Assembly (NCBI GenBank): GCA_001695645.1
Contig: LVZN01000024.1
Location: 1 to 26,334, forward strand
Direction of reading: 5' to 3'
DNA length: 26,334 bases
Origin: Erysipelotrichaceae bacterium MTC7
GTDB taxonomy: Bacteria; Bacillota_I; Bacilli_A; Erysipelotrichales; Erysipelotrichaceae
Part shown: positions 14,579 through 21,590 of the stretch, in pieces
Position numbering within the stretch: the stretch's first letter is position 1
How the letters are laid out: the number at the start of each line of letters is the position of its first letter
Translations under genes and position numbers: made by a program
Notes under the pieces: model-generated
Told to the model about the DNA's origin: nothing
Database searches by the model: none
Seen by the model: the letters and a program-made list of their open reading frames with translations, nothing else

Positions 14579-14610
14579 TGATAGACACAAATGTGTTTAT
14601 CACTTTTTTT
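14578..14610. terminator. Bidirectional rho-independent terminator between tsaD and the convergent PRD regulator gene
   Basis: 11-bp stem GTGATAGACAC / GTGTTTATCAC (one G-T wobble) with a 4-nt loop. T7 follows on the plus strand (14604-14610), and an A5 run upstream (14571-14575) gives a T-run on the minus strand. Confidence 0.8.
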
Positions 14611-16528
14611 ATGGTTCATTAACATACGATACTAACAACTCAATAAACTGCTCAGCATTTTTTGCTTGTATGATTTGTTTTACATTTTCTGGTTCACTCA
14701 AGATCATAGTGATTGTATCAAATATTTCGTTGAAAATATACCGTTCATTTATATTGAAAGATAACATCATGACTAGATTTACAACTTTATCACCCCAAGT
14801 AATTCCAGAAGGTGAAATAAGAATGTTAATTCCTGTTTTCTTCGAAATCATTCGCATTGCATGAGGAATCGCAAATGAGTTAAAGGCTGTAGATGCCATG
14901 TTTTCTCGTGAGATTATCTGTTCCTCAAACGTTTCATCTACATAATCCAAACGCTCTGCCTTATTACAAAGATAATGAATGACTTCCTCACTTGTTTTTA
15001 AAGTGTTATTGGTTTCAAACATATCGTCAATGATAATGGATTGTAAATGTGATCTAAGAATAGATTGTTTTTTGCTAATTAGAATTTCATTTACTTTCGT
15101 ACGTATCGCAAAGCGGTCTTTTTCATTGAACATAAAACTAACCATTAAGGTTGGAATCGGTATGATGCCACTAATGGGGATGGTTGATATCACTAAATCG
15201 TACATATCATAGTTTTCGATTTCTGATTCACTTGTTACTACGTTTTTAATCAATATGTAGTTTGAGAACTCGGTGTGAATGGTATCTACAAGTTTTGAGT
15301 TCATATCATAATAATTTGGGCAGTAAAGCAATGCATTGATTTTGTTTTGAATTGCTTTTTGTGTTTCTAAAGCACTTCCTAAGTGAAATGCAATATATGC
15401 AATTTCATCTTCATTGATTTTGACATTCGTTGCTTCCTCAATACCACTCGCCATATAAATGGCAGCATCATAGATTAATGGACACGTATATTGAATTCCA
15501 GCAGCTAATGGATTTTTACTTGAGTAATTAAATTTTGCACGTACAAGTAAGTTGCGAATATGAAGTGCAAACCGCGTTAGAAATTCAGGCTCCTTAAGAT
15601 TGATATAGTAAAATGCATTTACACCATCCACCAGTGTATTGACCAAATCAAGTGTATCTTGTTCAATCAAATCTTCCAAGTTGGAATGGTTGATATTTTC
15701 TAAATCAATGGCATTTGCATGGGCAGCAATTAACAACGACAATTCATAAATTTCATTCTCATTATAAGTAATGCTAAATCTTTCTTCCAATCGGCCAGCA
15801 ATAATTTGAGCCAATCGATGTTCGTGTGGATGCTTCAGTGATGTTGCATCTTCACTTAACGTACTTGTATATTCACTTTGAATTCGATCAATCGCTATAG
15901 TGATATGCAAAACCAGATTGGTTAACGAATAATCATTAATAAAATACTTATACGTTTCGAAGGTCTGTATAACTGTAGCTTTTATAAAATCGATATCAAT
16001 GGAAGGAAAACCATCTTGTAATGACTTTAGATTTACAAAGTTTACACTAGACTCCTCATATAAGATACTACTTACCAGTTTACGCTTGTTTTTCTCGATT
16101 CCTTGCAAGGATAAATAATCATTTTTATTTTCTAATGATAAATCAAATTTTTGAACTTTTCGTTTCACTTTTTTTAGTTCATTTTTTAATGTCGACATAC
16201 TAATAAATAGATCTTCCGATAACGCATATGCATCTACAGAAGGTTCCTTGACTAGTTTGTTAATAATGTATGCGACACGGTCAATTTCAACTTCTTTCTC
16301 AATCGTTGCATCAGCGAGTAATTTTGTTGCTACCTCAGTAGAAATGCAGTATCCATTACGTGAGGACTCGATTACATTATTATGAGTTGCATTAAATTGG
16401 GCGATATATGTTTTAACACTTCGCGAAGATACATTAAGTGTCTGTGCTAAAGCACTTGCTTTTGTCCAACCGCTACCATCGAGTAATGCTTTTACTAATT
16501 GCGTTTCAATATTGTTCATTTTTTCCAT
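14609..16528 (-). CDS. PRD-domain transcriptional activator of the LicR/MtlR/ManR class (HTH - PRD - PRD - EIIB-like - EIIA-like)
   Basis: N-terminal HTH region (GWTKASALAQTLNVSSRSVKTYIAQFN), central PRD-type helical repeats (LVLHITIAIDRI..., IAFHLGSALE...) and a C-terminal EIIA(Mtl/Fru)-like segment with the AIPHAM histidine. The start is probably ATG 16528 (MEKMNN) or 16519. The track ORF extends to 16651, but that adds an implausible leader across the intergenic promoter region. Confidence 0.8.
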   Translation of the reverse strand: MEKMNNIETQLVKALLDGSGWTKASALAQTLNVSSRSVKTYIAQFNATHNNVIESSRNGYCISTEVATKLLADATIEKEVEIDRVAYIINKLVKEPSVDAYALSEDLFISMSTLKNELKKVKRKVQKFDLSLENKNDYLSLQGIEKNKRKLVSSILYEESSVNFVNLKSLQDGFPSIDIDFIKATVIQTFETYKYFINDYSLTNLVLHITIAIDRIQSEYTSTLSEDATSLKHPHEHRLAQIIAGRLEERFSITYNENEIYELSLLIAAHANAIDLENINHSNLEDLIEQDTLDLVNTLVDGVNAFYYINLKEPEFLTRFALHIRNLLVRAKFNYSSKNPLAAGIQYTCPLIYDAAIYMASGIEEATNVKINEDEIAYIAFHLGSALETQKAIQNKINALLYCPNYYDMNSKLVDTIHTEFSNYILIKNVVTSESEIENYDMYDLVISTIPISGIIPIPTLMVSFMFNEKDRFAIRTKVNEILISKKQSILRSHLQSIIIDDMFETNNTLKTSEEVIHYLCNKAERLDYVDETFEEQIISRENMASTAFNSFAIPHAMRMISKKTGINILISPSGITWGDKVVNLVMMLSFNINERYIFNEIFDTITMILSEPENVKQIIQAKNAEQFIELLVSYVNEP

Positions 16529-16572
16529 ATTTATATAGTATAGCAAATCAAGCAAAATGCAAAACATATTTA

Positions 16573-16617
16573 TGCACCATAAAAGTGAAAGCAATTGTTT
16601 GCACCAATAGAGTGAAA
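16573..16617. promoter_or_regulatory. Two direct repeats TGCACCAnnAnAGTGAAA (16573-16590 and 16600-16617): candidate operator for the PRD activator
   Basis: TGCACCATAAAAGTGAAA and TGCACCAATAGAGTGAAA match at 15 of 18 positions, spaced 27 bp start to start. The second copy ends 8 bp upstream of the putative -35 of the PTS operon. Confidence 0.45.
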
Positions 16618-20105: not shown

Positions 20106-21541
20106 TGAAACAAAATAATCAGGGGTTTCCTAAAGACTTTCTTTGGGGTGGTGCAGTAGCAGCAAACCAAGCGGAAGGGGCTTGGGATGTAGATGGTAAA
20201 GGTTGGTGTATTGCTGACATTAATGAGTTTCGCGATGATATTGCATTGGAAAAGAAAAGTAATGCAGAAGTTACAACTGCATATGTTAAAGAAGCCATGG
20301 AAAGTACAACACGTATTTTTCCAAAGCGTTGGGGGATTGATTTTTATCACACGTACAAAGAAGACTTGAAATTGTTAGCTGAACTTGGTTTGAAGACATT
20401 TAGAACTTCAATTAATTGGGCAAGAATTTTCCCGAATGGGGATGATGAAATGCCTAATGAAAAAGGATTAGCATTTTATGATAACCTAATTGATGAAGTT
20501 ATTAAAAATGGAATGGAACCATTAATCACGATGTCTCATTATGAAATGCCATTAAATTTAACGCTTAATTATAAAGGGTGGTATGACCGTAAAGTTGTCG
20601 ATTATTTTGAACGTTATGGACAAGTGATTTTAGATCGTTATGCAGACCGTGTGAAGAAATGGATTGTTGTCAATCAAATCAATTTGATTAAACACGAGTC
20701 ATTTAATCACTTGGGAATTGCAGAAGATCTAGTTGATAATCTAACAGAAGCAAAATACCAAGGTGTACACAATGAAATGGTTGCTAGTGCACGTATTGCA
20801 AAATATGCACATGAGCACTATCCTAATGTAGAAATTGGAATGATGTTATGTGGTGGTCCTACGTTTGCCGCAACTAGCAAATCAGAAGATGTACTTGGTT
20901 CAATGAAATTGAATCAAATGGAATATTTTTACGCCGATGTATTGCTTCGTGGATACTATCCAAACTATGCATTTGCATTCTTTAAAGATAAGGGAATTAA
21001 CATTACGTTCTATGAAGGTGATGAAGAAGATTTGAAGAATACTGCAGATTTTATGTCATTCTCATACTACTACACAGAAGTAAGTGACTATGATTCTTAT
21101 TTCAAAGATGAAGGAGCTCATCGTAATAAAGAATTACCTGCAAATCCATGGGGTTGGTCAATAGACCCTACTGGATTACGAATTCTATTAAATGAATTTT
21201 ATGATCGTTACCAATGTCCAATCTACATTACAGAAAATGGTATTGGATACTTTGATAAAATAGAAGATGAAAAAGTACATGATAGCTATCGTGTTGATTA
21301 CTATCGTGAACACATCAAAGCGATGAAGGCAGCAATTCAAGATGGAGTTGACTTGCGTGGTTATTATGCTTGGGGACCAATTGATATCATCAGTTGCTCA
21401 TCAAGCGAAATGAGTAAACGATATGGTTTTATTTATGTGGATATTGACGACTACGGAAAGGGTAGTGGAAAACGTCTGAAGAAAGATAGTTATGCATGGA
21501 TGCAAAAAGTCATTGCTTCCAATGGTGAAGATTTAGATTAA
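20105..21541 (+). CDS. GH1 6-phospho-beta-glucosidase-like enzyme, paralog 2, also with Gln replacing the catalytic acid/base Glu
   Basis: TAATG stop/start overlap with paralog 1. Motifs: [45 protein letters not shown], nucleophile [19 protein letters not shown]. The acid/base motif reads [13 protein letters not shown], with CAA at 20675-20677. Confidence 0.9.
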
Positions 21542-21549
21542 TAGTATAA

Positions 21550-21590
21550 AAACAACGTCAATGCTGTAAATTTGACGTTGTTTATTTTAT
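21550..21590 (+). terminator. Rho-independent terminator of the PTS/GH1 operon
   Basis: Perfect 12-bp stem AAACAACGTCAA (21550-21561) / TTGACGTTGTTT (21572-21583), 10-nt loop, followed by TATTTTAT. Confidence 0.85.

Follow-up and report, generated by a model that had tools for sequence, protein, structure and literature searches.

A PTS operon with two GH1 genes

The 26,334-nucleotide (nt) stretch of DNA analysed here, referred to as the window, is the whole of contig LVZN01000024.1 of Erysipelotrichaceae bacterium MTC7, an insect-gut bacterium of the genus Breznakia. At positions 14609-21590 it carries an operon that comprises, according to domain searches, a divergent Mga/PRD/EIIA2 regulator gene, genes for EIIB, EIIC and EIIA of a lactose/cellobiose (Lac/Cel)-family phosphotransferase system (PTS), and two genes of glycoside hydrolase family 1 (GH1), called GH1-A and GH1-B below (Table 1). 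The central feature of this operon is that both GH1 proteins have Gln at the position of the catalytic acid/base Glu, i.e. N-Q in place of the usual N-E, a substitution that they share with a clade of bacterial proteins referred to as the N-Q clade. Housekeeping genes flank the operon on both sides (tsaE, tsaB, rimI and tsaD upstream, rex and asnS downstream), and a strong terminator lies at each border.

The locus is very probably a self-contained module for beta-glucoside utilisation, for which we infer both the substrate class of the PTS and the regulation. A PRD/EIIA2-type activator under PTS phosphorylation control would switch on the Lac/Cel-family PTS; EIIA, EIIB and EIIC would import a beta-glucoside and phosphorylate it at O6; and the two cytoplasmic GH1 paralogues would split the resulting 6-phospho-beta-glucoside into glucose-6-phosphate and an aglycone. 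The separate Lac-type EIIB, EIIC and EIIA place the transporter in the PTS lactose/cellobiose family (TC 4.A.3), and the HTH_11/HTH_Mga, Mga, PTS_EIIA_2 and two PRD domains place the regulator in the PRD-activator class (LicR/MtlR/Mga). The layout resembles that of the lic, cel and chb operons, such as licR-licBCAH of Bacillus subtilis, in which an HTH/PRD/EIIA-like regulator and separate EIIB, EIIC and EIIA are likewise combined with a phospho-glycosidase. However, LicH and ChbF are NAD-dependent GH4 enzymes rather than GH1 enzymes, and the 410-amino-acid (aa) EIIC of the present operon scores 158.6 bits against TIGR00410, below the cut-off of 236, and thus appears to be a divergent member of the Lac family.

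Table 1. Features of the operon in window coordinates
Feature	Position	Strand	Details
Hairpin terminator	14577-14604		Separates tsaD from the 3' end of the regulator gene; 12-bp stem and T-run; -16.3 kcal/mol, z -6.7
Divergent PRD regulator	14609-16528	-	Pfam HTH_Mga/HTH_11, Mga, two PRD, EIIA_2
Control region	16573-16654	+	Direct repeats TGCACCATAAAAGTGAAAG (16573-16591) and TGCACCAATAGAGTGAAAA (16600-16618)
PTS EIIB, lactose/cellobiose family	16689-17000	+	PF02302, E 2.4e-15
PTS EIIC, lactose/cellobiose family	17039-18271	+	410 aa; PF02378
PTS EIIA, lactose/cellobiose family	18283-18627	+	PF02255, E 3.9e-29
Weak hairpin and T-run	18634-18653	+	Between EIIA and GH1-A; -10.7 kcal/mol, z -1.3
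GH1-A	18678-20105	+	475 aa; true ATG at 18678, listed TTG at 18642 lies upstream
GH1-A N189-Q190 in place of N-E	19245-19247		Gln codon CAA
GH1-A nucleophile E375	19800-19802		Motif FIAENG
GH1-A 6-phosphate ligands			S428/K436/Y438
GH1-B	20105-21541	+	478 aa; start overlaps GH1-A stop by 1 nt
GH1-B N190-Q191 in place of N-E	20675-20677		Gln codon CAA
GH1-B nucleophile E377	21233-21235		Motif YITENG
GH1-B 6-phosphate ligands			S430/K438/Y440
Intrinsic terminator after GH1-B	~21543-21593	+	-18.6 kcal/mol, z -6.7

Gln at the acid/base position of both hydrolases

GH1-A and GH1-B are 49% identical to each other and match the GH1 profile PF00232 with 402.5 and 394.1 bits, respectively (cut-off 22.6). 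The AlphaFold2 model of GH1-A (pLDDT 89.3) has the (beta/alpha)8 fold of the family, with TM-scores of 0.89-0.91 to 6WGD, 2XHY and 4IPL and about 0.9 also to 3QOM, and the solved structures nearest to the pair are all bacterial phospho-glucosidases. In GH1 enzymes the acid/base is the Glu of an N-E-P/I motif at the end of beta-4. Here, the segments 'WILVNQIN' of GH1-A and 'WIVVNQIN' of GH1-B align without gaps on 'WMTFNEIN' of 6WGD, 8YSV and 2XHY in phmmer alignments, so that the Gln falls exactly on this Glu. Both Gln codons are CAA, a single base away from GAA. Apart from this exchange the catalytic apparatus is intact. Both proteins have the nucleophile motif (I/V-T/A-E-N-G), and both have the Ser/Lys/Tyr triad for the 6-phosphate, for which we take S428/K435/Y437 of LacG as the reference. 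Among 28 aligned N-Q relatives this triad is invariant, as are the sugar ligands Q21, H144, N189 and W421.

These results bear out much of the original prediction for this DNA, which had described a classical beta-glucoside regulon (a PRD activator, a Lac/Cel-type PTS and GH1 genes) between flanking terminators, with Gln at the acid/base position of both hydrolases and with the nucleophile Glu and the 6-phosphate ligands retained. Its description of the locus as a tandem GH1 system is accurate for this genome, but the tandem is a trait of some lineages only, since most relatives have a single N-Q gene.

Compared with known bacterial GH1 6-phospho-beta-glucosidases (2XHY; 6WGD of B. licheniformis; BglA-2 of S. 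pneumoniae, 4IPL/4IPN; 3PN8 of S. mutans; 3QOM of L. plantarum), the pair is alike in fold (TM-score about 0.9), sequence (45-50% identity), ENG nucleophile motif, Ser/Lys/Tyr pocket, sugar ligands and association with PTS operons. It differs in having Gln for Glu, an acidic residue 7-9 positions further on and about ten other clade-specific positions, and in falling into a separate monophyletic clade. Moreover, neither protein reaches any of the four NCBIfam cut-offs for 6-phospho-beta-glucosidases (NF007158, NF007154, NF007356 and NF011589), the best scores being 540.4 against 639 for GH1-A and 484.2 against 623 for GH1-B.

The same E-to-Q change at the end of beta-4 is found in engineered enzymes, including BglA E166Q, thioglycoligases and Gan1D-E170Q, the last deposited in the Protein Data Bank (PDB) with cellobiose-6P; in crystallography it serves to abolish turnover of ordinary substrates and so to trap them in the enzyme. 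Because it inactivates 6-phospho-glycosidases in this way, N-Q enzymes presumably cannot use the canonical GH1 mechanism. In contrast to those laboratory mutants, which are inactive on normal substrates, the N-Q exchange is natural and is accompanied by changes in the aglycone loop.

Conservation and distribution of the N-Q clade

The substitution is highly conserved among close relatives of both proteins. All of the 120 best homologues of GH1-B (72-100% identity), which include proteins of Enterococcus gallinarum, Enterocloster, Hungatella hathewayi and Dielma, have N-Q. Among the 120 best homologues of GH1-A (59-99% identity), from Anaerocolumna, Kineothrix, Coriobacterium glomerans and Lacticaseibacillus thailandensis among others, at least 115 have Gln and one has N-E. 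This conservation indicates that the Gln is neither a chance substitution nor a sequencing error. In two GH1-A homologues (P0043 and P0052) the Asn before the Gln is replaced by Cys ('VFCQIN'), leaving neither residue of the N-E motif.

In a neighbour-joining tree of 145 sequences, the 63 N-Q sequences form one clade with no N-E sequence inside it; the clade contains two main subclades, A and B, and its sister group has N-E. None of the 63 aligned members has Glu at the acid/base position. The larger set of 361 unique N-Q sequences used below was chosen for having Gln and hence cannot serve as a test of reversion to Glu. Within GH1 as a whole the clade appears to represent a small share of the diversity, since the best 150 matches of a profile search against representatives at 50% identity comprise about 97 N-E and only about 6 N-Q sequences.

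Nevertheless, its taxonomic range is wide. A scan for the back-translated N-Q motif, with one genome per species, listed 120 loci, a lower bound, and at least 116 of them are true GH1 genes. The hosts include Erysipelotrichaceae, Lachnospiraceae, Clostridium, Listeria, several Enterococcus species, Pediococcus acidilactici and bee-gut Lactobacillus, as well as Companilactobacillus bobalius, Neobacillus, Paenibacillus, Collinsella/Atopobium, Propionibacteriaceae, Rothia, Pelolinea (Chloroflexota) and a few Enterobacterales. For one of the last, the N-Q gene of Escherichia sp. ESNIH1 (L102), megablast against 5,426 complete genomes of E. coli gave no match. The N-Q clade appears to be large, old and horizontally spread, and the substitution itself to be a natural and ancient one that purifying selection maintains. 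Judging from the PDB, NCBIfam and the literature that could be searched, the clade is uncharacterised: no member is among the PDB structure matches, literature searches on bacterial GH1 enzymes with Gln at the acid/base position returned nothing relevant, and the GH1 enzymes of L. plantarum have N-E in all 11 cases.

Gene neighbourhoods of N-Q genes

The context of the N-Q genes is also conserved. The N-Q gene comes after EIIB-EIIC-EIIA and stands beside an Mga/PRD/EIIA2 regulator gene, in some cases together with a dedicated HPr, in E. gallinarum, H. hathewayi, C. glomerans, Kineothrix and L. thailandensis, and orthologous regulators of 637-661 aa adjoin N-Q GH1 genes in other genomes. Within 8-kb stretches framed arbitrarily around the N-Q genes, at least one Lac-family PTS component is present at 94 of the 116 listed genome loci and all four partners are present at 54, i.e. 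the same PTS/PRD context as in the window. All-against-all clustering of the open reading frames (ORFs) at the 120 listed loci further yielded only HPr (16), EI (6), a HAD (Cof-type) phosphatase (7), Bgl-type EIIBCA (10) and unrelated transporters. No sulfatase, esterase, kinase, isothiocyanate-handling or other aglycone-processing gene was conserved in these 120 loci. Most cassettes contain one N-Q gene as their sole hydrolase, and because there is no other hydrolase, the gene content argues that such an enzyme must be catalytically competent on its real substrate.

The EIIC of the window is 64-71% identical to the EIICs that adjoin GH1-B orthologues in Enterococcus gallinarum, Hungatella and Coprobacillaceae. 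The PTS and regulator of the operon can therefore be classed as 'B-type' by similarity, and GH1-A looks like an addition inserted between EIIA and GH1-B. Longicatena, Merdibacter, E. phoeniculicola and Vagococcus also have the A+B tandem.

Other arrangements occur as well. In Companilactobacillus bobalius (L079, 3363-7557), an N-Q GH1 gene ('WIVMNQINLFDREGF') is followed by genes for a LicT-type antiterminator and a 626-aa Bgl-type EIIBCA. From this gene order, N-Q enzymes appear to be occasionally tied to a Glc-family PTS and an antiterminator rather than to a Lac-family PTS and a PRD activator. In Listeria farberi (L028) and L. cossartiae (L037), both species of Listeria sensu stricto, a cassette of EIIB-EIIC-EIIA, N-Q GH1 and a PRD regulator resembles lmo0914-lmo0918 of L. 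monocytogenes in gene order, which makes the two sets candidate orthologues only. The gene lmo0917 is reported to be induced in soil extract (PMC3179493). As a studied orthologue lmo0914-0918 was set aside, the papers reporting expression changes in soil extract only.

An acidic residue downstream of the Gln

The loop just after the acid/base position is remodelled in N-Q proteins. It reads L-I-Q-F-E-P-F-N-S-T in the Listeria/Enterococcus subclade, M-V-Q-I-E-P-W-L-S-V-G in the Lactobacillaceae subclade and G-G-W-G-E/D-F/Y in clade A. Counting from the Gln, a Glu or Asp is present at +7 to +9 in 94% of the 361 unique N-Q sequences versus 17% of 115 N-E sequences, and a Glu at +7 in 62% versus 7%. 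The residues concerned are E198 in GH1-B, where H197-E198 occupy +6/+7, and D198 in GH1-A (+8). The downstream carboxylate is seen in divergent subclades, namely B, the Listeria type, the Lactobacillaceae type, L079 and P0248, and is lacking in the N-E sister group. In a search for a substitute acid/base only this loop emerged: no second Glu or His elsewhere in the active site is conserved in both N-Q subclades at strict thresholds. The acidic side chain at +7 is the most obvious candidate to replace the lost carboxylate.

Besides Q190, the positions that distinguish N-Q proteins from the nearest N-E proteins are T82, T100, N103, L202, M245, M271, G287, C429 and G453. T100, N103, L202, M245 and C429 adjoin active-site motifs in sequence and may be near the active site in space as well.

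Cys replaces Glu at +7 ('NQINLLQYCSWGSIG', 'NQINLIQYCGFKSLG') at loci L047, L055, L064 and L084, from Hungatella sp. and metagenome-assembled genomes of Bacillota, and also at L017, L036 and L110. At L047, L064 and L084 this Cys-type N-Q gene adjoins an N-E GH1 gene of a different type ('WTTINEQS').

Relation to glucosinolate-degrading enzymes

From the Gln, the original prediction proposed an uptake and cleavage system for glucosides with self-leaving aglycones such as S-glucosides, and it regarded PTS-coupled cleavage of 6-phospho-thioglucosides as uncharacterised. Such cleavage has in fact been demonstrated: PttS and PbgS of C. farciminis enable E. coli to degrade sinigrin, and extracts containing PbgS turn phosphorylated, not free, sinigrin into allyl isothiocyanate (PMC8660893). 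This is the sole experimentally supported PTS-coupled sinigrin system, and a literature search found no follow-up papers on PbgS. The sequence of PbgS was recovered by way of the primer table of that paper, which defines where each of the two genes begins and ends. The pbgS forward primer, scanned for exact matches, hit one metagenome contig (L128), which encodes a 627-aa EIIBCA ending in GDSLLNIA and a GH1 protein ending in NELQGAYVK, both of which fit the primers. The recovered PbgS reads 'VNYWLTFNEINVMSTMPW'; it keeps N-E ('WLTFNEINV') and carries Met at +7, and its identity to GH1-B is 43%. In both systems, that of C. farciminis (PMC8660893) and, as predicted, the present one, PTS import and phosphorylation are followed by cytoplasmic GH1 cleavage of a 6-phospho-glycoside. 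However, PttS is a fused Glc/Bgl-family EIIBCA and PbgS an N-E enzyme, whereas the present locus has split Lac-family EII proteins and N-Q GH1 proteins. The known bacterial glucosinolate pathway thus appears to use another PTS family and another GH1 lineage.

In addition, the E. coli enzymes BglA and AscB have been implicated in sinigrin degradation (PMC8660893), and BglA (2XHY) has N-E. The enterobacterial and lactobacillal glucosinolate enzymes mentioned in the original prediction as possible parallels therefore do not carry the Gln. The E-to-Q change, cited there as the hallmark of plant myrosinases, does hold for the classical QE-type, but EE-type plant myrosinases, which keep both glutamates, also exist (PMC6691170). 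Because PbgS, BglA and the EE-type myrosinases all retain Glu, Gln appears to be neither necessary for nor diagnostic of thioglucoside cleavage.

GH1-A and GH1-B do share with QE-type myrosinases such as Sinapis alba MA1 the GH1 family, a Gln where the acid/base would be and a preserved Glu nucleophile (PMC6691170). They differ in their independent bacterial origin, in their predicted 6-phospho specificity and cytoplasmic location and in the acidic +7 region. Rather than sharing descent with the plant enzymes, the N-Q clade nests in the bacterial 6-phospho-beta-glucosidases, where its sisters have N-E. In S. alba myrosinase (Gln187), we take +7 to correspond to the sulfate ligand Arg194, with Arg259 as a second basic residue of the pocket. 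In contrast, GH1-B has Glu at +7 and GH1-A has Asp at +8, and among the 361 N-Q sequences the combined frequency of Lys and Arg is 0.00-0.01 at +6 to +9. An acidic instead of a basic residue at the sulfate-binding position argues against anionic glucosinolates as substrates. Hence, the proposed link to S-glucosides is not supported: no evidence for it was found, and two lines of evidence speak against it.

Possible mechanisms of N-Q enzymes

Any explanation has to account for what is observed directly, i.e. the gene content, the substitution, its conservation across the clade, the genomic context and the co-occurrence of the downstream carboxylate. Our preferred mechanism, which is tentative, is that the loop Glu or Asp 7-9 residues past the Gln, in the beta4-alpha4 loop, makes up for the lost carboxylate and supplies the acid/base function from a new location. 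Like ascorbate in myrosinase, it would serve as general base in deglycosylation, and it might double as the acid; the Gln would hold the loop carboxylate in position and avoid two neighbouring negative charges. If so, the label 'acid/base-less' given to these enzymes in the original prediction may be wrong: the canonical Glu is gone, but the co-occurring carboxylate could supply its function. The strict retention of Gln also argues for a positive role of this residue, because one transversion would restore Glu and N-E enzymes handle activated substrates well.

Several points weigh against a relocated acid/base. About 6% of the N-Q sequences have no acidic residue at +7 to +9, some having Cys there and some nothing. 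In maize ZmGlu1 (Glu191), position +7 presumably corresponds to Phe198, which forms a wall of the aglycone pocket; by analogy with myrosinase and ZmGlu1, where this side chain touches the distal aglycone, it may be too far away for direct proton transfer. To our knowledge, no enzyme of GH1 or of clan GH-A has moved its acid/base in this way. Furthermore, the members of clade B are 72-100% identical, which makes conservation within this clade weak evidence, and two subclades dominate the N-Q sample.

A mechanism without any general acid, which is the original prediction in its general form, is a serious rival, although we consider it rather doubtful. The N-Q enzymes would then act on 6-phospho-beta-glucosides whose aglycone leaves unprotonated, e.g. 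thioglucosides, 1-O-acyl glucose esters, low-pKa enol or phenol glucosides or pyridinium N-glucosides, and the +7 carboxylate would merely bind the aglycone. This would fit the inactivating effect of E-to-Q on ordinary substrates, the strict conservation of Gln among the best homologues and the cassettes without any other hydrolase. Outside the N-Q clade, a natural Gln at the acid/base position is known only in classical QE-type myrosinases (PMC6691170), and PTS uptake followed by 6-phospho-thioglucoside cleavage is evidently feasible in bacteria (PMC8660893). However, PbgS already cleaves sinigrin-6P with N-E, so that losing the Glu brings no obvious gain; the absence of CAA-to-GAA reversion would go unexplained unless Gln has a positive role; and deglycosylation would still be without a base. 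The range of hosts (soil Bacillaceae, Listeria, gut Clostridia, Actinomycetota, Chloroflexota and insect symbionts) suggests a common substrate, and Lac-family PTS typically carry di- and oligosaccharides. A relocated carboxylate and a self-leaving aglycone could also be combined in one enzyme.

The remaining explanations, i.e. glucosinolate use, phosphorolysis or substrate assistance, and a dead enzyme, are each unlikely. One may argue for a bacterial 6-phospho-myrosinase on the grounds that the Q/E catalytic pair is that of classical myrosinase, that the hosts inhabit guts of plant-eating animals and that E. casseliflavus and other gut bacteria degrade glucosinolates. We regard this as very unlikely, as the proven sinigrin system and BglA use N-E enzymes, the former with a Glc-family EIIBCA, the Glu or Asp at +7 to +9 would repel sulfate, N-Q arose independently of the plant enzymes, its range far exceeds habitats associated with Brassicales, and none of the clustered loci points to a conserved sulfatase or isothiocyanate-handling gene. 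A slightly better, still small chance goes to anion-dependent catalysis, in which a neutral Gln would admit phosphate, yielding beta-glucose-1,6-bisphosphate, or a carboxylate of the aglycone itself (aldonic or uronic acid, salicylate). In its favour are the chemical logic, the comparable swap of Glu for His in GH3 glycoside phosphorylases of the Nag3 type, the strict selection that keeps negative charge away from position 190 and, as a weak hint, a HAD Cof-type phosphatase in 7 of 116 listed loci; but anions would be poorly accommodated in an aglycone site with a conserved acidic +7, the clustered loci have no beta-phosphoglucomutase or aldonate-pathway gene as a conserved neighbour, and there is no precedent in GH1. 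Least probable of all is that N-Q proteins are dead binding or regulatory proteins, or decaying paralogues, beside another enzyme that performs the hydrolysis. E-to-Q is a classic inactivating change, and an N-E GH1 gene does lie adjacent at L047, L061, L064, L075 and L084. Nevertheless, the nucleophile and the sugar and phosphate ligands are invariant across a deep clade, the ORFs are intact and translationally coupled in the operon, and in most cassettes, where no second hydrolase exists, uncleaved sugar-phosphates would pile up, which is generally toxic.

Taken as a whole, a beta-glucoside utilisation module whose N-Q clade enzymes work with a relocated carboxylate is the best explanation that we can offer, with confidence falling a little short of even. 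The substrate is probably a common plant- or microbe-derived beta-glucoside and not a glucosinolate.

Implications

In textbooks, GH1 phospho-glucosidases work with two glutamates, and genome annotation gives every one of them the label '6-phospho-beta-glucosidase'. The N-Q clade, present in Enterococcus, Listeria, Pediococcus, bee lactobacilli, Enterocloster/Hungatella, Collinsella, Neobacillus and Pelolinea, among others, presumably cannot use the textbook mechanism. It is possible, though rather less likely than not, that these proteins constitute a new class of retaining GH1 enzymes with a loop acid/base, or enzymes for unrecognised PTS-imported glucosides with a self-leaving aglycone. If true, Bacillota and Actinomycetota of gut, insect and soil habitats would have a widespread way of breaking down glycosides that has escaped notice. 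The substrate, once found, would fill a gap in the set of glycosides that gut bacteria and insect symbionts catabolise, and the mode of turnover would tell whether the acid/base of a glycosidase can be moved elsewhere or done without, which bears on the design of thioglycoligases and glycosynthases. In addition, a tempting inference can be corrected: Gln at the acid/base position is no marker for bacterial myrosinases, because the published PTS-dependent glucosinolate pathway lacks the substitution.

Regulation, transporter and other features of the window

The regulator ORF (680 aa) extends to 16651, and its homologues and the NCBIfam alignment begin at M42, which is the probable start. Against the NCBIfam AcpB/EbpR/MafR model the regulator scores 109.9, below the cut-off of 130. 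The two direct repeats of the control region, of 19 bp each, lie upstream of a promoter-like pair (-35 TTGAGA, -10 CATAAT) at 16626-16654, and the region is kept with small changes in Breznakia blatticola DSM 28867. The repeats and the -35/-10 pair are plausible as a putative activator site and operon promoter, respectively. The terminator after GH1-B was missed by a pattern scan owing to its 10-nt loop and was revealed by folding energy. The 50 bp that separate EIIA from GH1-A contain a short hairpin, rich in GC and with TTTTT behind it, that is also kept in the type strain and is thermodynamically unremarkable; as a terminator it was rejected (z -1.3, not significant), and it is possibly an attenuator or an insertion scar.

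Most proteins of the operon are 91-99% identical to those of B. blatticola DSM 28867 (L116); a literature search on Breznakia found no substrate phenotypes. EIIC is only about 74% identical to its counterpart in the type strain, compared with 98% for EIIB, 99% for EIIA, 99% for GH1-A and 95% for GH1-B, and the divergence of its gene is clearly higher in the central DNA than in the flanks. The pattern suggests a recombination tract that is limited to the transporter gene.

Elsewhere in the window, the ORF at 2643-5537 (+), of 964 aa, has no Pfam-A match at E<=0.001. Just past the operon terminator, in the part of the window with the lowest GC content (~31%), lie two orphan ORFs at 21629-22078 and 22234-22770 (+), of 149 and 178 aa, neither of which matches Pfam, NCBIfam or PHROG. 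Amid the housekeeping genes, positions 8868-9683 (+) encode a member of the aminoglycoside 3-N-acetyltransferase family (PF02522).

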